From assembly GCA_000934665.2 (NCBI GenBank), contig JYFJ02001620.1, positions 1-64,000 on the forward strand: a stretch of 64,000 bases of DNA, written 5' to 3'. The notes under the pieces were generated by a model. The model ran no database searches and had not been told where the DNA came from. It was given only the letters and a program-made list of their open reading frames with translations. A program made the translations under genes and the position numbers. Source of the stretch: Catajapyx aquilonaris. Lineage: Eukaryota. The number at the start of each line of letters is the position of its first letter. Positions within the stretch are counted from its first letter, which is position 1. Positions 3,001-60,828 of the stretch are shown here, piece by piece.

Positions 3001-5165
3001 GATGAAGAGCGGCAAAAGGCCTTCTATCACGTGTGCACAAGTCATCTTTTAGGGACACAGACGCCTCCTTGCGCATGCAAGGAATATTTTATAAGAATGC
3101 GACTCTGTATATACTGTGTATGTCATCTTCGTGATATTCAATTAGGCAACATGTGTGCATCAGCAGGTTAATTTTCTCCCCCATTAATGTACCTGGTGGG
3201 ACATAAAAGTACAGATGCGGTTGTAACGGTTTAATTATAAGTACAGTAGAATGGATGCGTCCAGACAAGGAGAAAGCACTGATGATATTTTCGGGGCCAA
3301 AGACCTGCGATGGGAAATTCAGGACTCGTGCACACAGCAGACTTATATGATGGGCCGCAATAAAACTTCCTATGCGTCATGACCGAGTAAAGTAAAAAAA
3401 AGAAAAATTAAAAGAAGGGCAGGAGGCCTATATTTTTGGCTATAGGACAATCCCTTCACCTACCTCTTAACGTGTCACACTTACACATCAGGAGAATCCA
3501 TTTATCAAACCGTGACTCCCCAGAGAATATCTGCCTGATTGTGTAACAATTGAGACATTACGAGCAGATCCATTGTGAGTGATTATCAGCCATCTCACAT
3601 TGTCCGACTTTATTTGTAATTTACTGACATTCTCGCAACTCCTATTGTCATATACCAGATTCATTAGCGTCGACTCTGTTCATGCTGACAGTGTGGTGCA
3701 CTACTCATCTCTCAATAGTCTAATTAGTGGAAAATAAACTATAAATGGTCAATAGGTGTTGATATGCTGCAGACAAAACGGAAGGAAAGTGTGTGCGTAG
3801 GAGTTTCTTCAAAAAGAGACCTCTTGACACCGTGAAAGTGAAGAGCGTCAATTTCCCACATGCTGAAGACTCTTCTTCCTTATCTAAGGAATCGTCCTCA
3901 TAACACGACCGTGCCATTCGTCTTGTTCCATCCAGACGGAATTACACAACTCACTTAACAGCCTAAAGGCATTTAAAAATGCAACGTGTCGTTGTTCTGA
4001 TGTGTATCTTCCGGACTTTGCTTTCTAAACACGACAGGTGTTGGTGTCAAAAAAGTAAGTGTCCTGTCCTCCTCCGTGTTTTGGTATAGAGTGTGATTGG
4101 GGAGGATATGACCCATTTATTTACGCCATGGTAAATGAGGATCGGCTTGGTTGCATCCACTCCTGATGGGGCTGCTGTACTTCCAGAACATCCTCTATTA
4201 ACTGTACCCACTTGTGGTAGGCGGACTGCAACTGTCTTTTGGTTCACATAACGGATCTCTTCCTCTTTGACCGAGTGCCTTTTTGCAGTCAACTTCTGTG
4301 TACCTTTCTGGGGGAGTCACACACGCACACACAAACTTAGAGGGGGCTGACTTCATCACGTGTTATTTAAGTATACGGGATCCAGATTCGTATACTGGGA
4401 AATGCACATGGTCGGCCATGAAGAACTAATTTGGAACATTGCCAATTATGTTGGTTTCTTCCCATTCCGTTTCGGTTAAAACGGTGCAAATTCTTAGCCG
4501 GAGAATCGACACACATTATGCAAAACCTATGTATTTTCCGTGACTTCCCATGAACACATTTTGGTAGCGTCTAAACCAGTGTCCCAGTTTTTATGTATAT
4601 ATATTTTGGTCGCGCATGATAGGCGTGAGAATCGAAAGCTTTACCATATAACTTATAGCTTTAAAATAACAAAAATTTAGGGCAGATCATTCAACTCGGG
4701 TAGTTGTAGTTTCCACATTAAATTTGTTTATGACTTGTTTGTGATATGTTTTCCAACAGATGGACCTGTTTATTATGTTGATATGTTACAATATTCGAGC
4801 CATATTTTATGTTGCAATTCGGTCTGTGAATACTGCATGTGCATATCTTGCTATAGGCTGGAGTCATACCCAGATTCACTTTGGTTGGGGAGTCGATAGG
4901 TTGTGTGTGACCTATATACCAGGTACTTCAGAATGTGAAGTATGATTACCTTTCTGCATTACTGACCCATATTTTTGTGATTTTGATATTTTCCAGTTGA
5001 TTGGCAACCTAGCTCCATCAACTAAATTTTGACAACTAGTCAATCCACAAATCTTCGACAAGGTATGTTGTTCTTTCGGTTTCTGCATTGACCCGTGCAA
5101 GGACATGCGATAAGTGTACATTTCGTTTATCAGGAGCTGTGGTCATTAGTGTGTGCAACCTGCGT

Positions 5166-6930
5166 ATGGAATCGTCTCTTCGGGCCATGGAAGGCATAGT
5201 TCTGGGCATGGGTCTGACCAGGATTATCCTGGTGACCGCAGTGGCCTTACTCAACCTCAGCTCCCTGCTCCGACACAGGCCAGCGTGTCTTCACTCTCTG
5301 GTAAACGAGGCTGTCCTCCTCTGCAACGTTGTCTACCTCTGTTCCTGGCTGCCCTTCCTGCTCTACTCCTTCTTCAACGGGCGATGGGTCATCCTGGACG
5401 ACCACAGCTACTGCCACATGCAGAACTTTGTCACCAACACCATCTCCATGGTATTCCTGGGCCTCCTGACGCTCCTGGTTATGGAGCACACCAGGATGAG
5501 GATACTGAGAGACGCCAGCATCTTGACCCCTAAGAAGTCAGCTGCCATGGTCCTCGCAATGTGGATCTTGCCACAGCTACTCTATGATTTCGCCACAATC
5601 CTGGGAGGTCAACCGAGGTGTCGGACGTCCCTCTTCCGCTTCCTAGACGACATCATGCCCTTCTCAGAAGGCGGAGAAGCCGCTCCCAGGCACAAGTACC
5701 GCATAGGTAAGAAATTTTATTCTCATGTATATACTATGTGCACACTTTTTACCCACCGAGTGCTCTGCTCACTCCCACTTGTGATGTCATGTGCGACATG
5801 TGCTCATGTTTGCATGTAATCAGAGCAAGGTCATACGAAGAATTGTACGTGTGTGCAATAAAAATACCACAATTTTTTTTTTCTGTGGTTTCCAGGTTTC
5901 ATGATTTGCGAGCAGGTCTTGACCAAGGAAGCGGTTGTGGAGCACATCTGGAAGTACGTGATGGTGGTTTTGCCATTTTTTGCACTGGTGCTCGTCTGCG
6001 GAGTCATGCGTGTCTTCTGGGGATGCGCCAGAAGGACTCAGCCGCTGTCAGTCTCCGCAGGAGACGTCGTTGGACACGAAGGCACGTCTTATAAGTATAT
6101 TCGCCTAAAATCTAACAATGAAGTGAACAAATGCAGTGGAAGGGTCATCAAAAAAATTAATGTATTGTTTCATCAAGCGCAATTAATAAGGTTTTGAGAT
6201 ATACAAAACTGGCTTGTAAATTGTATGCAAACATTTGGCATTGGTGACTTTTTAATTAAGCAGATTTATTGGCAGAAAAAAATAGCTGCAGTACGTCTAA
6301 TATTAGGCTGAAGTGAAAGCACTTTCCTTATAAGGTAACGTACATAAATTGCAGGAAAAACAGGTAAAAACGGAGCAATTTCGGGCCACGTGCATGTAGG
6401 CATCACCACCGCAATTATTCACTTTGGCAAAAATAAATTGCTTCTTTGTTTATGGTACGAAACAAAGTTTCTAACCAGTTTGTCACCCCTTTGCAGACCG
6501 GCTGATGAGGTCAATCTTGAAGGCCTCCTCAGGCTGCAAGCATTACCAGAACCAGAGATACATGTGCACCGATGCTGTGGGGCTAGTCCTTATCGTGAAC
6601 CTGGTATGGCAGCTTGTCTTGCGTCCCTGCTTCATTTACATGCTGTGGGTTCATCCGACACTTGGAAGTGCACAGGTGAAGTGTCCTGATTTTTTCCTTA
6701 TGGCTTCATATATAAAAGCGAAAAGATGCAATCAACTTATCTCATTTCCATTTCAGCTGTATGGATACATGGACTTTGGGAGCCATCTGGTCCTTACGAT
6801 CTCGACTGTTTTCGTGCCTCTCTCTTCCGCAGTCAACTCCGGAAATCCAAGAGATGAAGAGAAAGTGTTTCTAATGAAAGTGACGGACTTTGAAGACGAT
6901 GCTAAAGATTATCAAAAACACAAGTATTGA
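5166..6930 (+). CDS. Divergent orphan rhodopsin-family (class A)-like 7TM receptor, ~359 aa, 4 coding exons (5166-5706, 5896-~6081, 6497-6675, 6757-6930)
   Basis: Spliced ORF gives about seven hydrophobic segments, an ECL1 'GRWVILDDHSYC' (W...C3.25 pattern), TM4 Trp 'AMWILP', an ECL2 Cys 'MICEQ' and TM5 'VLPFF'. DRY is replaced by EHT and NPxxY by VPLSS. Splice sites are GT-AG except the exon-2 donor, which is uncertain. Confidence 0.7.
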
Positions 6931-15834: not shown

Positions 15835-18800
15835 TTAGAGTACAACAGCGAGGAAGGTCAACATAAATGGAAAAATCCAGGTGGCCTTCCAGAGGAAGCC
15901 GCTGTTGTTGCAACAGCGGGGTATCCTGTCTATCATCTTAAAATACCGAGAAATATCCTCGTGGTCCTTCACCGGAGCCACCATGCTCTCAGAGGTAGGT
16001 AAGTGATAAAATCTCTTCGTGTTGTCCTGAGAAGAGAGAAAAAAAGAGCGGTGACATATCAAAACTATTGTGTTTGTGACAATGAATAGAGCCGAATATT
16101 TACGTGAAAAATTAGGTCGTGATTTCCTTGAAACGGGCCGAACAACCAGAATGGGCTGGTCTTTCTCTTGAAAAGCTCAGCGGCTTCCAGAAGCACGTAC
16201 AAGTAGTTTTTAAACTCGCTTGCACTTTTTGATAGTCTCGTAATCACCTGCAATTAGTACGGTCTGATGTAATCGCAGCAATTAATGATTTTCGTGGTAT
16301 AGGGTCAGTTTCTGAAGTGGAAAAAAAAACCCCGATCGAAACTCCTGCGGAAATCAGCTTTGAACGCCGCAAAGATGTTGACTAATCATATCTCTGGCTT
16401 AATCGCACGTCTAGAAAAAATCACTCAAAGTCAACAATTAAAAAAATATGAAGCCTTACAGCAGGAGCAATCAAGGCCACTTTTGAAAAATCAGATTTAG
16501 CAGGCAATTCGGTGGGAACAGTGCTTGTGAAGCGGTGCTAATGGCGATAAGAAATAACATGAAACCTTTCTGCCAGGTACCGTTCCCCAGTGGCACTGAT
16601 AATAACTGGTGAGAGGCTGCAAGGAAGATTCACCATGAGGACACAGGAGACTCAGGCTGGTGAAATCCAAGCCAATGGCCACCTTTCTCGTGTCCTCATC
16701 TGCATGTAAACGGAGCTTATATTTTAGCACATGTTTAAGGCCTTTGTTGCAAAATGAGGATACAGGCTGAATAGAGGAATGAGACCTACCTATGTAGTCA
16801 TTGAATTCACGCAGTCCTTGGTGGAGGGTAACAAAAGCGATGTCGCCAATTTTATCTGCGAGGCAGCGGAAGACGTTTTCTTCTGAGACTGAAGTACGGG
16901 AACTCTTCGTGGGGCAATCTGCGAGGTTTGATTCGGATATATATGTTTAGAGCACTCATTGCATGCAAAATGATAAAGAGATGCTGTATTTTTCTATTCA
17001 GAGTTAGTGGTTATTTTTGAACGGTTGGCAGGCCACGTATCACATGGGTGTCTAAAGGACAATAGGGTAATTAAATCACCGCTTGCGAAATTGCTCTGAT
17101 TGTGCAATCGTGCGGTTTATTATCAGCATGCGTTGTGCTAAGTGGACTATCTGAAGCTTCCGATCCTGAGGTCAGAAGTAGTGACTTGTACCAAGTATGG
17201 CATGGGAGGAATCTAGGATGTCATTTAATCACTTGGAAGTAATGACTGGCTTCCTCAGGAAGCTGGAAAAGTCTCGTATTGCTCATGTTTATTCCCGTGT
17301 TTCTCATCTCGGTTATTATTTTTTGTTTATACGTTGCCTGTGGCAGAACTGCTTTATTAATTTGATATCGGGTAAGATCTGAGTAACTCTATATCCGTGT
17401 ATGGCACAACCTATAAATACAGGGTAATGAGACAGCAATTTTTATTCCCGGATGCCTTTTTTGGGTACTACCTCTTGCAGCACAAGAAAACAGCAATTAT
17501 GCTCATCCTAAATCTTCAGATCTACATGCAATGCTGTCTGAATAAGTAACTGGCAGTATGACTTATCAACGATGCAAACTCCTTTGCTTGGGATAAGCAA
17601 AATAATAATTTTGTAAATTACTGTAGGCTGCGAGTGTGTGCGTATAATTTATTTACGAGTACTTCTTTGGGCAACTACAAACTACCAAACGTCATATTTT
17701 TCATTGCAACCTTTGTTGTTCAGAGGCTTATATAAGCATTGCAGCTTTATACTAACGAGTAAGCCTTCAAAAGTTTTGAACATATCAAATAAATCTTGCA
17801 TTGAATGTTTTTGACGGAATGTTCGACGCCTCAATTTAAGGTGATTATAGTTCACACGTTCACACATCCGACCTCCTATAATTCTGTCGGGCAGTTGTGT
17901 ACGTCCACCTTTAGTCACCCCCTTTTTTCTTTGGCCTAATGCCATGGAGCTTCAGGTGAGCGCAATGCCCCACACAAGCCAGTGAGCCACCAGTAGCTAC
18001 GTTTTATGTATAGACGTAAGAGTAATATGTAAAACCGGTATTTGTACTACGAGATTAATGACGATATTTTTTACCACTTTGAAAGGCATTACAGGAACTC
18101 TTTGAAATATATTGTAGGCTGTTACGTTCTCTCCCAAAATCAACAGAGTTAGGGTTGAAAAAGGAGAAAACGTAACACAAAGGGATTTCACGAGATATTA
18201 TCAGAAGCTGTTTATAAACACTTGCGATGCTCATGTAGTTACACTTGCATCAAATGAAATGCCACTTCCTTAGGCTATACTTTTGGGTGACACACTACAG
18301 TGCATGCTATCATGCAAGTAATTATTACTTCAGTTGAGGCTCATAAAATGTTAAATATTCCTGTCAAGCACTGTAGACGTAACAGGTGCTAAAGCTTTCT
18401 TAGCAAAGTTAATCGAACAACACCGCATTAATATTACAATGAGCCTACAGGTGCTTGCTTTTATGCCCCGCTAATGAATTTGTTTACTGTCACGAAATGC
18501 TAAAATATCGCGGCGCAGACAGCAGCAATGCAGCAGACTAACCCAGTGATCCAAACCAGACGATCCAGGGAGCCCTGCCGTGATAATAACACACTTTCAG
18601 CGATCTGACTCACCACTTGGACGCCCTTCACAGTCAAACTAATCATATCTCAAATCTGAACCATCATAAAGGCATCGCCCCCGATAGATACAGAGCTGTA
18701 CAGAAATGGTACAGAATGGCGCCATCAGTACGACACCAATAATGCCCAGAATTGTACGTCTTCGTATCAACCTCACTTGTCAACCTCACCTGGAGTACCG

Positions 18801-44907: not shown

Positions 44908-47647
44908 CTCGGTTGGAGAGTTGAAGACAGAAGCTGCCGCGCAACCACCCTCGCTCGACTACCACTACTCATGAGACTGCCTCAGGCTCAGGGGTATAGA
45001 GAGAGAGGAGAGGAGGTGGAAGAGGAGAGAGTAAAAGTAGAGGGGGGGTTGGTTTGGAGGAGAATCAGGAGGTTGCAGTACGGGGGTGGTGGGGAGGACT
45101 TGCTTTGCTCCTTTTTTTTGTGTGTGTGTACAGAAAACACCGGCAGTGAGATGCCCTAAGGTAATTTCGATACCCTTGGCTCAGGTTTAGGTACTCGAGG
45201 TAACAAAAAGTTGGAGGGACACTTGGAGCCTGTTGATAACTTTTCAAAGTGATGGGGCTGATGACCGCCGCAATATTGCTAATAAAATGCGACACCTTTT
45301 TGACTGTCCTAGACTAACTAGGTGTTTCGTAATACAGTAATAATTCGGACAAACATGTGTAGGATGATTTCATACGGACCAGAAGATCATTTTATGTGGT
45401 GTCATTTAGTTTTCGAAGAGTCGTTAACTGAAATAATGGGCGTACAAGTAAAACACAATGCATGTGAAATATCCTGGCAGGTATGAATCCCTACATGCGG
45501 CCTCGCATTTCAACTGAAAAATTTAATCAGTGTTGCTATGTTTTAGTAATCAATAGCAATTTCATTATGGGTAGCAGGCAATGACTGAGAGGATGGAAGT
45601 GGTCTATTACAGTACCGACAAACGCTATATGAAAATGGCAGAATGTGCTATTAATCAGTGCTAATTAATTCAGTAACGAGTAAATCGTTACAGCTCAGAA
45701 TTACAGTCAGGTAAAAAAAATAGTCTCGACAATACCTGCATATGTGAATCGATATGGTGCAAGCATTTTAAAAAAACATTGCGATGAACTATATACAAGC
45801 TTACTTTATTTTGTTGCGCAGAAGCCTATATATAGCAAGAACCTCATCAATGATGTCATGATAAGGGTTGTATTCAATAAGAATATGGACTGTTGCCATT
45901 TACGCACTAAAAATACTGTTACTTGGCTAATTTCAGGACTATCGTTCAGTGATATGCATATGAGCAGAGACATTTCCAGTCCAATGTCATCAGTGGATCA
46001 TGACCTAGTTACATCGATCAATACGCAAGAAAGAATTTCTTGGAAAGCATTTATCTCTGTTTGGCAGAATATTTCAATGACGTGGCCTAGAGGTCACAGT
46101 CATACAATGTAAGTTTTGCATATTTCACTTACCAGCAGTTGGAGAAAACTAGAGAGGAGTAAGGGGCCAATAACCACATTTTTACTTTCACCACAAGTTT
46201 TATCAAGTGACATTAATTGAATATAGGTGAGAACGAAAAGTAGGTTCCAAGTCCACTTCTCTTAAATTGGTTGCAAAATATTTTCCACATGCTGCGTATG
46301 TCCATATTTTTTCACGTTCCCAGTCCAATTGGATACCACAGAAATGAACGATCGTGAAGAATATTCCAGAACGGCAAGGGCTCTTGAAGTTCATATTTTC
46401 CATTCATTGCATGGCGAGTATCAGGTTATGAAAAAAGCTCCAAAACGGCCCAGGTCATCTCGAAGGCCAGTGATAGATAGAGGAGCATGAAGGTCACTTT
46501 TTCCATGTTCAAAAACGATGTCGCGTTAAATGGGCACGATATATCGTCATTATTATGATAGGTCACATATTTATGAATGCAGTTTTGGTAGGCTACTCCA
46601 TACCAGAGCAATTAGTGTTTTAAAAGTTTAAAATATTTTGTCCAAGATAAACACTTAATTGTCATTCGAGGGATTTTTTCCGGAAATAAAAAGCGTGTCG
46701 GCCTGGCTGAAGCTGCGAAAATATTATTTTGCTATATTGAGATACTGTATACATAATTATGTGCCAATTTGAAAGTCATGAGAACATCTGACTATGAGCA
46801 GTACGTGATGTCATTCATAACTTTTCGAAAGGCCATCTGTTGCTGCATTTGGCTAATTTACAATTATTTTCTCACTCGATTTCTCCCCTGAATATTTACG
46901 CTGCAGAACACGATGTGTAGCAAGTTGGACAAGTGGAAAGAATGAAAAGGACCAATGCTCAGCAACGTAATCACATTACCATTTTACAAACTCTATTCGT
47001 ATTTAGATGTTAGATGGTACCACCGGATTTTAGGTCTTTTATAGGCTCCTCCAGGTTATCATTTTTATCAAGTCTTAGTGCGACACTCATTTTGCCAATT
47101 ATAATAATGCGTTATGGTTCATGCTTAGCTCAATTAAGAAAATTCTCCCACGACCTTTTCAAAGACATTGTCAAATTATAGCAATTATTATTATTGTACA
47201 CTTGTAGAGCCTGTAAGAAAATTCGATATTTCCTGCCCCTTTCTCAGCTCGAGTGTCTTGATCGCACCGCTCATCATACCACTTTCAAATGCCTGTTTTG
47301 GATATTTAAAAGCTGAAAGTCTTTTACATATTTTATTTTCATGTAGACCCACTTCCAACTTCATATTCATATGGGTTCACCTATAGAGGAGCTATGCACT
47401 AAAATTACCGACGTTTTTAAAGGCTTAGTAACAACACCGATAACACCTTGTTTTCCGGTCACAATACATTGCATACAAATACACATCTTTTGATGGTAAA
47501 TAATAATAATAGACAAACACATCCTGTACTGCTCTTCAAAGTACAGTAAAATACTAGAGCAACAAAATCTGGCAATGATCTAGCTGAGTATAGCAGGAAA
47601 CTCCAAATGACTTTCCCTCAGCTGCGCTGGTTGTCCATAGCCTATAC

Positions 47648-47649
<2 letters not shown>

Positions 47650-47714
<65 letters not shown>
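47650..47714. repeat. (AAT)n microsatellite, ~21 units
   Basis: Perfect TAA/AAT run. It explains the poly-Tyr ORF at 47580-47786. Confidence 0.97.
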
Positions 47715-47963
47715 TAATGTTCCCCTCTCTGAATTATTCTTCTCTGGGGCAATTTCATTACGTATAATGTGGTAATAGCACATCAATAAATCTCACTCTT
47801 ATATGGCATATTTGCAAACACATCAATAAATATTACATATACCGCCACAATATGCAAAGCAACAGTTTAAAAAATTGAGCAACACATATTTTTATATCTT
47901 GCCTGTTTCGCATCACATTTAAATAAATCTAGGAGCTAACTGGTACTTATGATAACACCACTG

Positions 47964-50860
47964 TTATTCCTTCTTGTTGCAGAATTCTTCCGGCTTTTGA
48001 TCCGTTTGGCAGATGAGTTTGGCGCAATTTTCGAGGGAAAGAGCTTGACCGACACCTGCACATGATAAAAACAGCACAAAATATTTGACGCAAATCCAAA
48101 AATAAATTGCCCTTACCATTTCCTTCCTCTGCGTCGTTCTTTTTGCCTGGAAAAAAAAGACACAGCATGAGAAGCATTTGTTCCCAGGTCGGATTGTCAA
48201 AATAATTGTGTTCCTCCAAAAAATAATTGCGACCATCATACTTACCGTATTCTTGAGGAAAGGACACTGCCTGTGGGTCACTCTCAGTGGAATACTCCCC
48301 GTCCACTGCCACCACCTTGAAGATGTACACCTGCCTGGGTACCAGTCCTCTGAGGACCACGCTGTCCTCAAACCTCTTGGGCTCGCTCTTCTTGTACTCG
48401 GTCCGGTCACTCCTCCTGTACATCACATAAAATCTGGACCCGCACACCCCTTTCAAGTTGGGCAACCAAGTGATCTTGACCTCCGCCGTGTCGTCCCTGG
48501 CAGACGTCAGCTGTCTCCAAGTGAAGCCGGGCTTGTCCGGTCTCAGCATCGCGTTTGGCCTGTCGCTCATGGTGCTTTTCTCGGTGAACTCGCCAAACCC
48601 TTCCCCTGCATTGTTGCTGGCCTTTATTGTCACCCTGTACTTGGTGTCCGGTTCCAACCCACCGAGTATGGCGCTGGTTTGATTCGGAGCAGCAGGAGGA
48701 TTCCGGATGTGACGAGGACCGATGTAGATCCCGTTCACGATCTCGTAGTAGATCGTGTACCGAGTCAGGACACCGTTTGGTTCCTTGGGCTGTTTCCACA
48801 CCAGGTACAATGCTGATGAGCCAAGAGGATAGGCGTCCAGGGAGCTGACTGGACCTGGAGGACCTTCAGGTGTGTAGAAAGAGATGGTCTTGCTTGGAGG
48901 ACCGTCGTATTTCCGGTTGTAAGCCAGTACTCTGAGGTAGTTCTTGCAGTTTGGAGACAGGTCGTGCACCGTCGCTTCGTTCACATCGCTCTTGATCAGT
49001 AGCTCACGCACGTTTCCTTCTCCGTTCTTGTCTGTCCATATCTGAATCTGAAAATATTAATCAAGAAAATGCCATTACGTCGTATTTTCGCTCATCAGGC
49101 GGTATGACTCGTATGACAAACCTTGTATCCTTTGAAGTATCCACGGACTGAATCGCGGTCGACCGGATCCCACCTGATGCTGGCCGTTTGTCCGTCGATG
49201 ATGTTGACCAGGGTGACATACCTGGGAGGGTCCACAGGTTTCCCTTCACCTGAGTATCCAATAACCTCTCTGGGCTTGGCTCTGGAGGGACCCAGCTCAT
49301 TTATGGCTATCACCTTCACCCTGTACTTCTTGTACGTCGGTTGGCTTGGTACCATCAGGCTGGACACTGTCCAGTCGTGGATGTCCGCCACTGTCCAGAG
49401 TTCCCCAGGGATGTCCCTCCGGAAGTACACGCGGTAATGGAACCCAGGTGCACCATGCTGGTCTTCAGGAATGGGCTGAAACAATTCCAATTTACATAAA
49501 AGTACCCTGTATGATGATAAATACTTACGTCCCAAGTGATAACCAAATTGTCCGGAGCCGTTCCTGCGGCACGCACCACGTCCGGGTTCTTGTCCGGAAC
49601 TTTGAGAGGCGACTGACACGCATCTGAAGACGACGAGGGTTCAGACGCCCCGACCTTGTTGATGGCGATAACCCGGAAGGTGTAGTTGGTCCAGGGCTTC
49701 ATGGGTACGGACACCTTGTAGCGTGTCTCGCTGGGAGGTACGGAGTCGCTGTCTCCTATCCAGTTGCCAGGACTGGAGCTGGTGCTGTACTCTATCTTGT
49801 ACCTGAGTATGGGCGATCGGTTGTCTCCAGTCGGACGCCATCGGACTGTCGCGTCATCCTTTCCGCAGGTGAGTCCAGTCACCTTTGGAGGGTTGGGCAC
49901 GTCCTGTATGACCAGGCTCATGGTCGAATGGGCCTCGTCCAGTTCTGTGGATGCTTCGCAGGTGTATGACCCGCTGTCCCGCATCTTTGCCCGCACGATG
50001 AGGAGTGAGTTGTAAGGAGCTCGGGTCATTCGTTGTTCCTCTTCGAGGTCGATGGGCTGACCATTTTTGAGCCATCTGACCGTCGCGGTCAGAGATGGGT
50101 CGGTCACCACTCTGCATGCAAGCTGGACACTAAGTCCGACCGGAACCTCATAGTCTTCTGTTTCTAATATCCTAGTGCGCTCTGAAACATTTGACCAAAT
50201 CATTGCCAGAAGATTGACCATCTTTAAAAAAAAATTAGAACAATAAATATTGGTTTGTGTGATAATTTCAGTTGTCAAAAATTTAATTACTTCATGCTGC
50301 CAGTACTACACGTACTGTACAGTACAATCAATGCCGCACTTTATTCGATGTGTCGGATACTCTGGATACAAACTCACCTCTTACGATAAGTGATCCTTCG
50401 TACTGAGCAACACCCATAGAGTTGCTGGCACTGCATGTGTACTTTCCCGAATCAGAAGGCTGCACATCCCTGCATAAATAAACATCTCATTTAGGCAAAC
50501 TTGTCGAGACGAATAATGTCGGGACACACTTACCTGATTTTCAGATCACCTTCCGACTGGACCGTGTACCTACTTCCGACGAGGTTATGCCCGTCTTTCA
50601 GCCAAACAAACCGAGGCTTCGGATCTCCTTTGGCTCGACAGGACAATGTCACAGTTCTTCCGGCCACTGTCACCTCATCCTTCATGAGTTTTGTAATCAA
50701 AGGGGATGTTCCGTTTTTGCAATCATCTCCTGGAAAACAGTGTTTATGGCGTGGTAAAGCTCCATTAGAATTAACCTAGTGTATACTTACCATAAGCTGA
50801 GTGTCCCAATTGCAGTAGAACCACCAGAAGAATCGCAGCAGTAACAGTTCTGGGACCCAT
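47964..50860 (-). CDS. Secreted neuroglian/L1-CAM-derived protein, 762 aa: signal peptide + 2 Ig + 5 FN3 + short Cys-rich tail; no TM or cytoplasmic domain
   Basis: 8 exons with GT-AG sites and consistent phases: 50791-50860, 50534-50729, 50378-50469, 49529-50181, 49122-49475, 48246-49047, 48117-48146, 47964-48055 (2289 nt). Contains L1-family motifs DSGSYTCEASTELD, QDVPNPP, GDNRSPILRY, PWTNYTFRVIAINKVG, VPDKNP, GYSGEG, VRGYFKGYKIQ, FYTPEGPPGP. Confidence 0.9.
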
Positions 50861-52772
50861 CTCGACTGTGTCTTCTTCACTTGGCAGCCTCTTCCTTAGA
50901 TGAAGTCTCGTTGCCTCCTGCCAAGAGATGCTACGTCACAATTTTACCGTATTGATGACCTGGTAGGCCGTCTCGATGGTCCATTTCCAATCAGATCAGG
51001 TTCGCAACAAAAACTTTTATGGGAACGCACCACATAGTCTAGGTCATGAGGCTCACCGGCAAGGTGAGTCTGGTAAATGAATGGTTCCGCTTAAAAACAA
51101 GCATCTCGTGAAGGTGGATACTGAAATTTTCAGGCAAAATGATCGCCTAAATATTTTTTGCAACTAATATGCAACAGTTTATATCACGCAGCAATGTTAT
51201 GCATGGTAACGGGATTGCTGCAGTACCGGTACTTCCTGTTTTGCACTTAAAAATAATTATTCTATCATATTGTTTGTTTTGCCATTCTAATTTGCAAGAT
51301 CTTTTTTGTCACTTGAGAATCTCTTTTAAATCGCTAAAATGTTTCCCTGCAAGAGATATGAGAAATAAAAACTGTACCTAGCAGAATTATAGTAGCACAT
51401 AATTATCACGAGAAATTTTTCGATATAGTTGTATTTAGCTGACAATAATTCTGTTTGTACAATTATTGATATTAGCATAGCATTTTTCATGCTCTTTTGT
51501 CTAAAAACTATCAGAGGATCCATGCATTTCCATCAAGCTCCGCAAAACAGACGCAGGCTAATAATAACTCTTGATCTTCTGTAAGATCAACGCCTAGCAC
51601 TATAGTGCTATAGTGAATAAAACACTTCAAAATGTGGTTTGCACAATTCCTTGCAAGATCATGTAGCGGTTTGCAATCAAAATGCATCCATTATATAACA
51701 GGTTGACCGCGTGTGCAGAGAAGTAGTGCTGGCATCCATCCAAGTAACGAAAATCTATTACGTCTAGAGCATGTGTACCTTATTCAAATGCCACTAGACC
51801 AGCATTCCTCGGCGTATTCAGCAAAGAACACCGGCACAACGGCCACAACCTATAAAAAGTTGGTCTACTAGTGAATGAACAATGATGTTGAGGATGGTCG
51901 CATAACTGCACCCGAAGAAATAAAAACAATCTGGTTTTTATATAGAACATCCTGGTTTTATTTACGAGAAACCATACATGGCTACAAACAGCGTCATCCC
52001 GGCAAATGAGGGCATATTGAAATAATCATAAAATAATTCGCAAACACATACACCTGAATAAGTGATAAGGTTCACTTAAACTTTCATGCAAACTCACCAG
52101 TTTCTTGCGTTTGTCACGAAATATTCTCTTGAGATAGAAGCGTCGTGTCGGTCATGTTATTATCATATCTCCACGAGAAAACTCTAATAGAGCAATGTTG
52201 GTTGCCTAAATCGCAGGATCGCAAAAAAAACTGCATCAGCAATATATTATCCTGTTTCTTCCTCATCTAACAGGATTATAGAATATGAGTTTGTCTGCAG
52301 ATTGGGGAGCCACAAAGTATATTCGCACATTTTCTTCCATTAAATCTAAAATATTTGAGTTTCTGTTCTCCTAAAGCAATCATAAATAATTTGAACTTAT
52401 TTAAACTCATCAGTTATTCCCCCTAACATATCTGAAGCTGCAATTAAATTATTGCAATTATTATATGTGATTACTTGCTTTCCACATAGTAACTTGAAAT
52501 AGACAAAATGTAGTCAAACAAGTGCAAATAGTTACTGGTACAGTACTACTGTCAAAATCTACACAGAATATCTGTAGTAATTATGGAGATGGGTGCAGGT
52601 TGTCAGTAATGGGGTAAAATGCTTCTCTTTCATTTTTTATTATAAAAATAACTTCCAAATTGAAGTACAAGGTTAAGGGATGTGCCACTCTTGAGTACAG
52701 TTACTGATGTATTTTCTAATTTGAAGGTAACAAAAAAAACAACTTCACAAACAAAACCCTTTTGTTGCATCC

Positions 52773-55700
52773 TCAATTTTCCTTGCAGTAATCTTGAGGT
52801 TTCTGGGCCACTGTGGTGAAAAGTTGAGCGCACTGGATCAGAGTGAGAGAATTGGGTCCAGCCTGACAGTCTCGGACTCTCTTGAGCATTGTCAAATAGT
52901 CAGTCTCAACTGGTTCGATTGGGACAATGTGAGCCACAGTGTCCTGTGAATAAAAAAGAACAATGGCTTTAAAAAACCAACAATGGCAATCTTAGGTAAA
53001 AAGCTTTCTTTTTAAAGTCACAAGATGCTGGGGAAAAAGGACAAGCAAAGCACAAGACTCACCGACAAAAAGTTACCCTCAGCTTCATATGGAGTGAACA
53101 AGTGGAAGTTCTGCTCCCCATCTTCACCCCCAAAGACATCGTTGATGTTCAGCAGAGCTTCACGAATGTCTTCCACCGCCACAGAGCTCTTCTTAATACT
53201 CGTCACAATCTGTTCCAACAAAAATAATCCTTTGAATTCACATATAAATACTAGCTTATTTCTGAATACAGTTTGTAAGCTTGACAGTCATAACCTCATT
53301 CATAACAACTTGGTAATTGGTATGAAAGTAGACTCACCTTACTCCCTGGAACCTTTCCCCAGTTGCATTGCTTGTACTCCTCAACTGGTCTGAGCCCACC
53401 TTCCTTGCACAGGAGACGGAAGTCAGAAGACTTGAGCTGGGAAGCCCAAGGGGCCTCACTGTGACCATCTGCATATAAAAATGTCAGATTTAGGCACACA
53501 GATTAAACATTAAAGGAACTGCAAAAGCAGTTGTCAAATAACTAAAGCAAATTTTCACCTGTATTGGATTCAACTACAAGGTGTTTGGTAAAGGCAACAT
53601 CGCCATGGCCTGAAGCCAAGCATCGGAAAGCACCATCATAGCCATAGAAGGCTTCGTGGTCAGTGGTTGAGCACTTTGAAGCTCCATTCCTTGTGTACTG
53701 GGGGCCACGCGATGTTTCCACCACTGTAATGAAAATCTTTATAATATATTTCTCAAACATAACATCCTCATAAAAAATAGATATCACAAATATTACGTAA
53801 CATTAAAACTGTAATTCTTCTAAATGCACGAACTTAGGAAAAATTGAACAACAGCAACATTTAGAGAAAAAAACCAAACTTTCAATCAATTGCATGTACT
53901 GTACGAAAACAATCGTTGAAAAGTTTTTTTTGTTTTCTTTGTCTCAGCTTACCATCCACATCCTCGCCTACACAAATGGAGCAGAGGCCTTCAGGATTGG
54001 TTCCCTGAGGATCATTCTTGGAGTCTTTGGCTCCTGGTGCACAACTTCCACCAGCAAAGAAGTGAGACATGGCAGTAGCATAATCACAGTCAAATGGATA
54101 AATTAACTGCTTTTTGGCCAGAACATGAGCAGGGAAGAGGAATCCTGCATGGCACTTGAATCCAGAATGGCATGACCTCTTTCCCCTCAGGTCTTCCACA
54201 TTGTGAATCCCTGAGTCTGCCTTGACCACTGCCACACTGTAGTACCGGTAGGGGCTGGTTCCTTCCACAGTCAAGCTCACCACAGGTATGAAGTCCTCAT
54301 CAGAATAGACTTCCTTAGAGTATCGCACCATAATGTCAGCTTCACCTCTGTTGATCATTGCAGCACACTGGTCACGACTTTCAGCCTTGACACATGCAAT
54401 GCCAGGCCTAATCCTTCTTGAGTGAGCTGCGGTTGCAAATTCCAAGCATTTTGCTTCCTGCAACATGGTGTGTGTTGGCAACGTTAGTGAACAGTTCTTG
54501 CTCCGGACACATTTGTAAAGGATTGGTAATAATTTTCATGTAAGGTTTGCTGCACTATATTGAAACAGAGCATTCCTTATATTATGGAAAATTAATTAAA
54601 ATGGCTACTGGTACTCATTAATTATTATTAAAACACCAACAAGTCACAGAAATGCTTAATGGAAAGACTGGCAATAAAGTTTCAGCGAAGAAGGAATGAA
54701 AGAGGTACCTCTCCATCATTAATATTTTATGCTGATAGATAGTTTCTCACCTGCTCATTTCCAACCACACACCACCTAATGAGCTTGTCTTGGCTGCAAC
54801 TTGGGCGATCAATTGTTACATTGTAGTTGGAATGATCAATGTATGAAGACACAGACACAGGGAAGGGCATGTTGTACTGGAAGTCACGCTTTCCCATTCC
54901 CAGCACTTTGGAAAGCCAATCGTTGTTGAGAGAAAGGTACTTGAGCTGCCTGAGTTGCCGTTTGATTTCAATGCCATGAATGGGATCTGCCTCGTTTCTC
55001 ATGACAAATGCACTCCAAGGTCGCCCTGCCCAGGTGCAAGGTTCATTTGAAGTTACTGGCATCAGTTGACCATTGGGGCAGAGAAGACTGAAGTCTTGCG
55101 CATTCTCATACTTCAGCACACTCTGAAGATTAATGGGCACAAATTAGTGATAGGAACATAAATAATATACATCAGAGATCCTAAATCAGTGCAGTTCAAA
55201 CTAGATCACTGTCCTTCAGGCCACTTTTATTATCAAATAGTGTATATGACAAAATAAACTACTACATGCCATGTACTGTATCACAACACAAGCCTACGTC
55301 AGATAGATTCAAGTTTTGTGTGGATTGCAGAATATTTATTGAGGTAGAACAAGCTCACCTGAACAGCACTCATCTTTGTCCAAGCAACATCTCCATCACC
55401 TTGAGTCAAGCACCGGATTGTCCCCTCGTACCCAGCGTATACGTCATCACCATCACAAGTCTCAGGATGTGAGCACAGATCACACAATGAATGGTATTCC
55501 CTCTCTAAGAAGAAGAAATAATCAGTGAAGATCATACAAAAATTAATGGTGTTGTCCATATTTTTAAAACTTACTGAGTTTCTTGCTGACATCCTCATCA
55601 TTTCCCCATATGAAGGGAACGCAGGATGGCCCAAAGAATTGAGCCACAGAAGAAATTTCATTCTCCAGTGTAGACTTGCTTGCATCACAGTTTAATGGAA

Positions 55701-56545
55701 TGATTCCATCATGCATCAGCTGTAGAAAAAAATATTATAAGAGTATTTCCTGATTTTCCAACAAGTAAGAGTAAAAAATTCCATACCTGTGAAATAGGAA
55801 CTCTCCAACCAGCCGTTCGGTCATATCCCGTATGGCATGACTTCTTGCCTCGAAGATCATTCAAATTATGGACCTCACCACTATTTTTAATCAATGCAAC
55901 AGCACCGTACCGATAATCATCTGGATAATTTAAATACAATTACTTAATAAGCCAGGAGATCCTGCAGTTTTATAAACTTACCATTTGCTCCAGCCATACT
56001 TCTGATCTGCTGAATGACAACCAAATCTTCTCCATATAATTTGCCAGCTACATAAATATCTTCAGGGTCAAGTAGAGCAAAGTCTGCCTTTTCCTTCGCA
56101 ATTTTGTGAATGCAGTCAAGTCTGAAATTGTTGAACGTATAGGCACCAAAATACTCTCACACATGTTGCTATGCTGATGGTTACATGCTGCGACTCTAGC
56201 GAGCCTTATGCCATACGTGTAAGAAACTCACTTGTCTCGGCCTGATACGCAGTTGAGGTTCACCTTTCCAAGACCATTGACGGCCTCAAGCATTTCCAGA
56301 CAGGAACTCATTACATTCTCCGGAACACAAATCCTCAGTCTTGTAAAGAGCATGTTCTCAGTTTGTTCTTGCTCCTGCTGCTGTTCTTGACCTCCTTTAT
56401 ATTGCCCTAAAAAATGAAACACATTAGGATTAATCACACCGGTATAAGATTATAACACTGATTAAGCAGTAGAATATTACAAACCATGGCCTAAGTGAAC
56501 AACTGCGCAACAGGCAGCCGCAAAAATGATAGTCTTAAGCCCCAT
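52773..56545 (-). CDS. Tf-E: secreted transferrin paralog; N-lobe ligands intact, C-lobe degenerate; Gln-rich N-terminus; Cys-containing C-terminal extension; 12 exons
   Basis: Signal MGLKTIIFAAACCAVVHLGHG; LRICVPEN...CVSGRDKLDC; LLDPED; YRYGAV; SCHTGYDRTAGW; YAGYEGTIRCL. C-lobe: ADIMVRYS, SCHSGFKCHAGF, KVPGSK. Ends RVRDCQAGPNSLTLIQCAQLFTTVAQKPQDYCKEN*. Confidence 0.93.
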
Positions 56546-60400: not shown

Positions 60401-60828
60401 TAAGAGAATTTATGTTACCATTCTCTCTGTGTCGCATTTCTGTCATTACATTGCATTTGTTTGGATAGTAATGGTTCACGGCATACATCTGTGATGGTGT
60501 GAGCAAACCTACATCCATACTTCCTTCAGCCAGCTTCTTCATGCATTCCGTGCTGCAGATAATTGCAACAGTTAATTTTTTAAAAACATCTTCCAGTTAA
60601 TCTTTTACTCACTCGTCTTTGACAACTTCACATTCAAATGATGTCTCCACATCTTTCTTCATCTGCAGGCAGTCTTCAATAAATGATTTGTCAACGCCAT
60701 ATCTGAATGTTTCTGTAACATAATAATTAGAATTAAACTCATGATTAAACCAAGAATGATATATATATCATACCTTGTTGGGCATGCGCTAGAAGTCCCA
60801 AGCAGACCACGATAACCAACCTCCACAT
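57456..60828 (-). CDS. Tf-F: secreted transferrin paralog; N-lobe partly conserved, C-lobe degenerate; ~13 exons
   Basis: Signal MWRLVIVVCLGLLAHA; LLTPSQMY; RYKAVVV; TCHTGYDRTAGW; YAGYEGSLKCL; WACRPHKAF. C-lobe: VVDSAL, HIFAVAM, SCHSSIDTYAGW, YYNDEGAVQCL. Ends VEKVAQCTKQ* with no hydrophobic tail. Confidence 0.92.

Follow-up and report, generated by a model that had tools for sequence, protein, structure and literature searches.

A neuroglian-derived gene without membrane anchor, apparently framed by transferrin ends, in Catajapyx aquilonaris

Introduction

Can the middle of a cell adhesion molecule stand alone as a working gene once its adhesive head and its membrane anchor are gone and, if so, where did the ends of such a gene come from? 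The question is raised by a minus-strand gene (50860→47964), here called the chimeric gene, on contig JYFJ02001620.1 of Catajapyx aquilonaris (assembly GCA_000934665.2; full contig 74,266 bp), of which positions 1-64,000 of the forward strand were analysed and are referred to as the window. A preliminary description of the locus had read it as an intact open frame of 762 amino acids (aa) encoding a soluble, neofunctionalised derivative of neuroglian, a protein of the L1 family, with the last two immunoglobulin (Ig) and the five fibronectin type III (FN3 or FN) domains, and as a counterpart of the secreted protein hemolin. The best overall explanation of our results, and in our judgment a probable one, is a functional, lineage-specific chimeric gene whose product is a secreted rod with transferrin-derived ends.

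Neuroglian has been described as a core septate-junction protein (PMC10084454). According to the binding data given in PMC3406286, homophilic binding by L1 needs the Ig1-4 horseshoe and an Ig2-FN5 construct does not bind; the same account leaves open the role of Ig5-6 and FN1-5 apart from the horseshoe. The FN3 domains of L1 are described as able to self-multimerise and to bind integrins (PMC2175144).

Results

Three-frame reading of 47000-51600 yielded, independently of the preliminary description, a splice model of exactly the 762 aa that it had claimed: eight exons on the minus strand from the ATG at 50860 to the TAA at 47964, 2289 nt in total, without an internal stop. All seven introns are predicted to follow the GT-AG rule and measure 53-196 nt. 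The 762-aa protein consists, in order, of a signal peptide, Ig5, Ig6, FN1-5 and a hydrophilic cysteine-bearing tail, with neither a transmembrane (TM) segment nor a FIGQY motif; Pfam finds I-set/Ig and fn3 domains in its exons. Exon 1 (50791..50860) encodes the signal peptide (aa 1-23), ends in a phase-1 donor and is similar to the signal-peptide exon of the transferrin-like gene upstream. The splice model, Pfam and alignment to the parent gene described below place a short N-terminal extension with Cys27 and the start of Ig5 in exon 2 (50534..50729) and the remainder of Ig5 in exon 3 (50378..50469). Exon 4 (49529..50181) covers Ig6, FN1 and the beginning of FN2, and Pfam and the alignment assign FN2 and the beginning of FN3 to exon 5 (49122..49475) and FN3-FN5, with the new Cys489 and Cys657, to exon 6 (48246..49047). 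Exon 7 (48117..48146) is a predicted 30-nt micro-exon of phase 1-1 that encodes a charged linker and might be skipped in frame. Exon 8 (47964..48055) encodes the hydrophilic tail with Cys743, Cys748 and Cys758 and the stop, and this tail has a homologue at the end of the upstream transferrin. Beyond the stop, the first 1.1 kb contain a single AATAAA/ATTAAA hexamer (47332..47337, minus strand), a candidate polyadenylation signal.

Signal peptide and TM segments were judged by Kyte-Doolittle hydropathy in 19-residue windows. The most hydrophobic window of the protein lies at the N-terminus (aa 6-24, 1.64), and the maximum within the last 120 aa (1.39) falls in FN5. The last 15 aa have a mean hydropathy of -2.05, compared with +1.46 to +2.49 in seven transferrin tails resembling glycosylphosphatidylinositol (GPI) signals, so that by hydropathy a GPI-type hydrophobic C-terminal signal is absent. 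Neither FIGQY nor NRGGKY turned up in a six-frame motif scan of the window, which gave a single chance SFIG on the plus strand. The mature protein is predicted to be about 82 kDa (82,347 Da) with an isoelectric point (pI) of 8.2 and four N-glycosylation sequons, and it contains no RGD. Among its cysteines, six canonical ones are kept, two are inherited with the tail (Cys743/758) and four are new (Cys27, 489, 657 and 748); the parent neuroglian lacks both Cys489 and Cys657, and so do at least 36 of the 37 full-length homologues compared. GC content at third codon positions is 0.63, against 0.35 in the introns. Introns 6 and 7 can also be read in frame without a stop to 47947 (a 369-aa open frame; 47947-48245, minus strand), so that intron retention would yield a different, likewise TM-less C-terminus; no 19-residue window of this readthrough reaches 1.9.

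Searches of the genome with exons 4 and 6 returned one close paralogue, on contig G000:C4652, at 52-61% identity. This parent neuroglian is intact in its gene model (1245 aa, 12 exons) and has a signal peptide, six Ig, five FN3, a TM segment and FIGQY. It carries two alternative terminal exons, each with EDGSFIGQY (G000:C4652 ~18066-18394), which resemble the two Drosophila neuroglian isoforms. The 762-aa protein is collinear with it from the start of Ig5 (aa 32) to the end of FN5, with 56% identity over 679 aa; by domain, identity is 48-69% across Ig5, Ig6 and FN1-5 and reaches 69% in FN2. The closest named database matches are also neuroglians, and a search of the PDB returned, apart from the FN1-2 fragment of Drosophila neuroglian (1cfb), nothing but generic Ig/FN3 relatives. 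No close orthologue was found: the best match of exon 6 was 51% (50 hits, proteins of 469-2000 aa), and a HMMER search of representative proteins gave nothing closer over the full length.

Compared with its parent, the 762-aa protein keeps the Ig and FN1 cysteine pairs, and differs in having no Ig1-4, TM segment or FIGQY tail, another signal peptide, the cysteine tail and four new cysteines. Its pI of 8.2 compares with 4.9 for the parent Ig5-FN5, and net charge is higher in five of the seven domains. It is a neuroglian derivative, but by definition it is not an L1-type cell adhesion molecule, a hemolin or a transferrin. The missing parts do not appear elsewhere on the contig. In tblastn searches with the parent, orthologous Ig1-4, TM and cytoplasmic exons were not found on the 74,266 bp, where these parts of the parent gave, chance hits aside, only cross-matches to the Ig domains of the chimeric gene. 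In the genome, the parent Ig1-2 exon has one strong match, the parent itself, and one further match at 31%, and the parent TM exon matches only the parent, the other hit having an expect value of 0.49 and containing stops. The genome searches score best candidates only and the assembly is fragmented into 20,583 contigs, so that a missed copy is possible though not indicated. The domain content, the signal peptide, the hydrophilic C-terminus and the lack of Ig1-4, TM segment and ankyrin-binding tail given in the preliminary description are thus all borne out.

Intron positions bear on how the copy arose. Two are common to both genes, three internal ones and one before Ig5 occur only in the chimeric gene, and two only in the parent. 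Other arthropod models and fragments also start or stop at such sites: P0054, P0083 and P0090 where Ig5 begins, the repeat unit of P0004 where Ig6 begins, and P0277 at the FN3 site. This suggests that these intron positions are ancestral, which points to duplication at the DNA level. P0004 (Ischnura elegans, 1717 aa) has an exact duplication of Ig6-FN5 and no TM segment, and is likely an assembly or annotation artefact.

The divergence between the two genes is old and constrained. Over 679 codon pairs, identity at codon positions 1, 2 and 3 is 0.66, 0.75 and 0.38, and at 192 four-fold sites it is 0.32, near random; pN is 0.30 and pS 0.73 (saturated). Change on the chimeric-gene branch itself was gauged in columns where the parent has the residue found in most of 37 outside full-length proteins: there, 134 of 156 near-invariant positions were kept vs 74 of 161 variable positions (p = 2.9e-14, Fisher test). 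The gene is thus not evolving neutrally, an outcome that would have spoken against the preliminary description. Ig6 lost 11 of its 30 near-invariant residues, every other domain 0-4. Chimeric gene and parent are sisters in a carefully searched tree of 14 rows (support 100/99) and in a quick search of 40 rows (98 by SH-aLRT); the 14-row tree was built under LG+G4, a model with a greater tendency to long-branch artefacts. Branch lengths are 0.78 for the chimeric gene vs 0.16 for the parent, about five times longer, and the pair falls outside the sampled insects, copepods and amphipod, a weak placement that makes a non-insect pancrustacean the probable host. Taken together, the gene is an old lineage-specific duplicate to judge from these sequences; purifying selection acts on it, its rate of change has risen, above all in Ig6, and it is very probably a functional gene for an anchor-less protein.

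Where, then, do its ends come from? The gene lies between members of a transferrin cluster, and both ends resemble those of its upstream neighbour, a two-lobed transferrin-like gene of 763 aa and 12 exons (gene model 56545→52773, minus strand). The last exon of this gene (52773..52943, minus strand), which encodes the end of the C-lobe and the cysteine tail, is the putative donor of exon 8, and its first, signal-peptide exon (56485..56545, minus strand) that of exon 1. The last 21 residues of the two proteins align without gaps, 9 of 21 being identical, including both cysteines and QKP, and the stops lie one codon apart. In an ungapped comparison over all six frames of the contig (~148,400 positions), each tail was the best match of the other, scoring 50 and 55 where the runners-up had 27 and 26. 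None of 3000 shuffles reached the score, and the DNA of the tails is identical at 51 of 116 positions in register vs 26-35 at 12 other offsets. A genome-wide pattern of the tail core matched the two genes and one more site, and the reversed control pattern had one match. The third site (G000:C1833) lies after a stop codon and was set aside as chance. The signal peptides align from Met1 with a score of 35, reached in 1 of 20000 shuffles; the five remaining transferrin signal peptides of the cluster all fall outside the top ten matches to that of the 762-aa protein, and the signal peptide of the parent neuroglian looks unrelated by eye.

The transferrin was favoured as the donor of the tail because its relatives carry a GPI-like tail at this place and because the cysteine tail shares an exon with the lobe end. 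After the last lobe cysteine, hydrophobic GPI-like tails are found in 4 of 6 cluster transferrins, in the one other transferrin of this genome that was read to its end and in both database relatives. Of the remaining two cluster genes, one stops after the lobe and the upstream gene has the hydrophilic cysteine tail in the same exon as the lobe end. The tail as a canonical C-terminal helix of transferrins was ruled out, since the closest relatives carry the GPI-like tail there. The ESM Atlas gave no usable match for the last exon of the upstream transferrin, and a complex prediction for the two tails, run without an alignment, scored 0.02, which speaks neither for nor against a contact. The 762-aa protein lacks the PF00405 lobe, and no transferrin match was found by tblastn between 44900 and 52700. 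In all likelihood, judging from these alignments, exon 8 derives its tail from a transferrin; a transferrin origin of exon 1 is also probable, with less assurance. In its predicted spliced form, the gene appears to be a chimera whose parts trace to two unrelated parents, the core to neuroglian and the tail, and more weakly the signal peptide, to transferrin.

Anchor-less neuroglian-like models also occur in other arthropods. They were collected from a database search restricted to 64-966 aa, the representative search and cluster look-ups, and the insect ones are all automated RefSeq models. Diprion similis XP_046753210.1 and models of four Neodiprion species (615-627 aa) have Ig5-6 and FN1-4, and further anchor-less forms were found in Helicoverpa armigera (XP_049692060.1) and H. 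zea (XP_047020507.1; 733-734 aa) and in the hoverfly Eupeodes corollae (XP_055914069.1, 710 aa). Like the 762-aa protein, these insect models join a signal peptide straight onto Ig5, followed by Ig6 and four or five FN3, without a hydrophobic C-terminus. In the 13 models scored, of which 3 are chelicerate forms that keep Ig1, N-terminal 10-residue hydropathy is at least 2.4 and the C-terminal 19-residue maximum at most 1.13. Each insect anchor-less model groups with the neuroglian of its own lineage, and a tree uniting the anchor-less forms of all four lineages was rejected (p-AU 2.5e-9 in an approximately unbiased test that was not blind, the 14 rows having been picked from the 40 after the first tree). 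With gene models of separate origin in three or more insect lineages, the architecture is thus recurrent, not unique, and the near-identical ends across five sawfly species argue that at least one anchor-less insect form is real. A phase-1 intron before Ig5 would make such a truncation easy to repeat.

The Amblyomma model P0078 was dropped as an anchor-less form, as its cluster includes a 1211-aa member, and so were numerous contig fragments whose start or end coincides with an exon border. The anchor-less chelicerate derivatives P0051, P0188 and P0073 were counted apart: they keep Ig1 and skip Ig2-4 (Haemaphysalis, several models) or Ig2-5 (eight Logan proteins). Another truncation type is seen in the divergent neuroglian-like P0221, P0291 and P0247, which have a signal peptide, FN3 only, a C-terminal hydrophobic stretch and little or no cytoplasmic tail.

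Discussion

We suggest that the neuroglian Ig5-FN5 exons, bounded by phase-1 introns, may have been copied at the DNA level and have landed within a tandem duplicate of the neighbouring transferrin gene, displacing its lobes, while the transferrin signal-peptide exon and C-terminal peptide would have been retained around the copy. As for the tail, the simplest history would be that the GPI signal was remodelled in the transferrin and then passed on to the chimeric gene. What the preliminary description had missed is the apparent origin of both ends in the transferrin gene next door and the presence of the same architecture in at least three insect lineages. Its reading as a neofunctionalised secreted L1 derivative stands in so far as the gene is anchor-less, horseshoe-less, separate from an intact parent and constrained; secretion and any humoral, matrix or decoy role are predicted only. 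The transferrin-framed chimera appears specific to this lineage; the truncation of neuroglian itself recurs in insects.

The product would be, we infer, a rod-shaped secreted glycoprotein of ~82 kDa that neither links to ankyrin nor adheres homophilically in the manner of the horseshoe. By analogy with L1, homophilic adhesion is unlikely without Ig1-4 (PMC3406286). The gene is probably co-expressed with its transferrin neighbour and its product released into the haemolymph or the extracellular matrix. We tentatively propose, as a possibility that falls short of being probable, that it serves as a cross-linked extracellular linker or scaffold of disulfide-linked dimers or oligomers. The Cys743/758 pair would close the tail and leave Cys27, 489, 657 and 748 for cross-linking, and the basic surface (pI 8.2) might bind acidic matrix or cell surfaces.

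Several points weigh against this account of origin and role. The signal-peptide match is weak, at 35 vs 32 for the next, unrelated position, and the shuffles overstate it because signal peptides have a general design in common. No further transferrin remnant was seen at the DNA level in 45000-52700, database searches found no relatives of the cysteine tail outside this genome, and the single-sequence structure model of the tail is a helix alone (pLDDT 68). The insect anchor-less models, unlike the 762-aa protein, have no transferrin-type tail, and none of the 4 anchor-less forms checked has a cysteine at 489 or 657; cross-linking is therefore not general to the architecture. Moreover, the FN3 multimerisation motif of L1 belongs to vertebrates.

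It would be tempting to see the protein instead as a soluble decoy or regulator that competes with membrane neuroglian for the partners of Ig5-FN5, such as septate-junction partners or haemocyte integrins. In this way it would adjust how barriers assemble or how haemocytes aggregate, much as hemolin acts as an inhibitor of aggregation. A table of core septate-junction proteins of Drosophila includes both neuroglian and melanotransferrin (Tsf2) (PMC8006247), neuroglian-positive haemocytes are described as seeding aggregation in Manduca (PMC9218073), the truncation arose repeatedly in insects, and FN2 retains its 69% identity to the parent. However, a decoy should retain the surfaces of its parent, and here Ig6 has lost 11 of its 30 near-invariant residues and net charge has risen in five of seven domains; there is also no RGD, and the 5-fold longer branch better fits a new function. 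We therefore consider a decoy unlikely, and the scaffold is ranked above it because the surface diverged in charge and in Ig6. A different use of the tail would be as an assembly tag, the 762-aa protein and the upstream transferrin forming a covalent heteromer through their shared cysteine tails, with the rod as carrier or display platform for the transferrin. A comparison is offered by pacifastin, in which a light chain is covalently attached to a heavy chain that resembles transferrin. The tail remains recognisable (9 of 21 residues, both cysteines) though the surrounding DNA of the two genes no longer aligns, which on this reading implies selection on the tail in both genes; the charges are opposite (pI 8.2 and 5.4), and the genes are adjacent on the same strand. 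Yet a shared tail is equally explained by a capping intra-tail disulfide or by homo-oligomerisation, and adjacency already follows from the origin of the gene. Such a heteromer seems very doubtful to us, and the scaffold is placed above it because nothing in this analysis shows binding.

A further reading would supply the anchor from an unseen exon, or take the gene for a recent pseudogene. Splicing is predicted only, the assembly is in 20,583 contigs, and a (TAT)n tract at ~47650-47716 gives poly-Leu or poly-Ile in two frames, the strongest hydrophobic frame downstream. Against a hidden anchor, the 74-kb contig holds no TM or cytoplasmic homology and the genome no second copy, and on either side there is a transferrin gene that starts with a signal peptide of its own (at 56545 and 44898). 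Exon 8 is preceded by a good acceptor and encodes a conserved tail, and readthrough of introns 6-7 brings no window of at least 1.9. As to a pseudogene, long neutral decay is at odds with a frame still unbroken after 0.8-0.9 substitutions per site. This reading is hardly probable at all. The most far-reaching combination, distinctly unlikely in our view, is that a melanotransferrin-type gene had its GPI signal converted into a soluble, cysteine-containing assembly tag and that a duplicate of this gene then took up a neuroglian stalk. The two co-secreted subunits would then build a covalent soluble transferrin-neuroglian heteropolymer from the stalks of two septate-junction proteins, and the horseshoe-less stalk would be a secreted module re-invented repeatedly across arthropods, with an undescribed Ig5-FN5 binding activity.

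Hemolin derives from neuroglian Ig1-4 and is found in the haemolymph, where infection induces it and where it binds microbes. Like the 762-aa protein, the hemolin of Lepidoptera is described as a secreted arthropod protein related to neural adhesion molecules and without an anchor (PMC9163686). It is described as a four-Ig horseshoe (PMC9163686; PMC11999971), whereas the 762-aa protein has Ig5-6 and five FN3 and none of those Ig domains. The two have no domain in common, and a shared mechanism can therefore not be assumed; "counterpart of hemolin" would hold as an analogy in domain content only. In the open-licence literature, which leaves most subscription journals outside, we found no publication on horseshoe-less secreted neuroglian forms or on a transferrin-framed chimera.

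Natural secreted Ig5-FN5 proteins kept by selection, with at least four origins (this lineage, sawflies, Helicoverpa and the hoverfly), would point to an activity of their own. The chimeric gene would be a clear case of gene birth by framing, in which the middle of a cell-surface protein is set between the first exon and the last peptide of an unrelated neighbour. In addition, a probable GPI signal would have been turned into a soluble cysteine tail.

Other features of the window

Six two-lobed transferrin-like genes form a tandem cluster on the minus strand (window 9900-60900), with signal-peptide exons at 60828, 56545, 44898, 34119, 22495 and 14640, and the chimeric gene is flanked by those at 56545 and 44898. 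The nearest database relatives of the upstream transferrin are melanotransferrin-like (Tsf2-type) crustacean proteins (44% on the exon tested); the Penaeus chinensis and Petrolisthes models P0313 and P0314 have a hydrophobic GPI-like end where the upstream transferrin has the cysteine tail. Compared with melanotransferrin-like transferrins, the 762-aa protein has no transferrin lobe, and it has the tail and probably the signal peptide in common with the upstream gene. The predicted mature masses of the two neighbours are nearly equal (82,355 Da for the upstream transferrin vs 82,347 Da; pI 5.4 vs 8.2), probably a coincidence. Downstream of the stop of the chimeric gene, the minus-strand frames of the (TAT)n microsatellite read as poly-Leu, -Ile or -Tyr, and no good acceptor was seen there by eye. 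On the plus strand, at 5040-6930 of the window, open frames with several hydrophobic stretches resemble a multi-pass membrane receptor.
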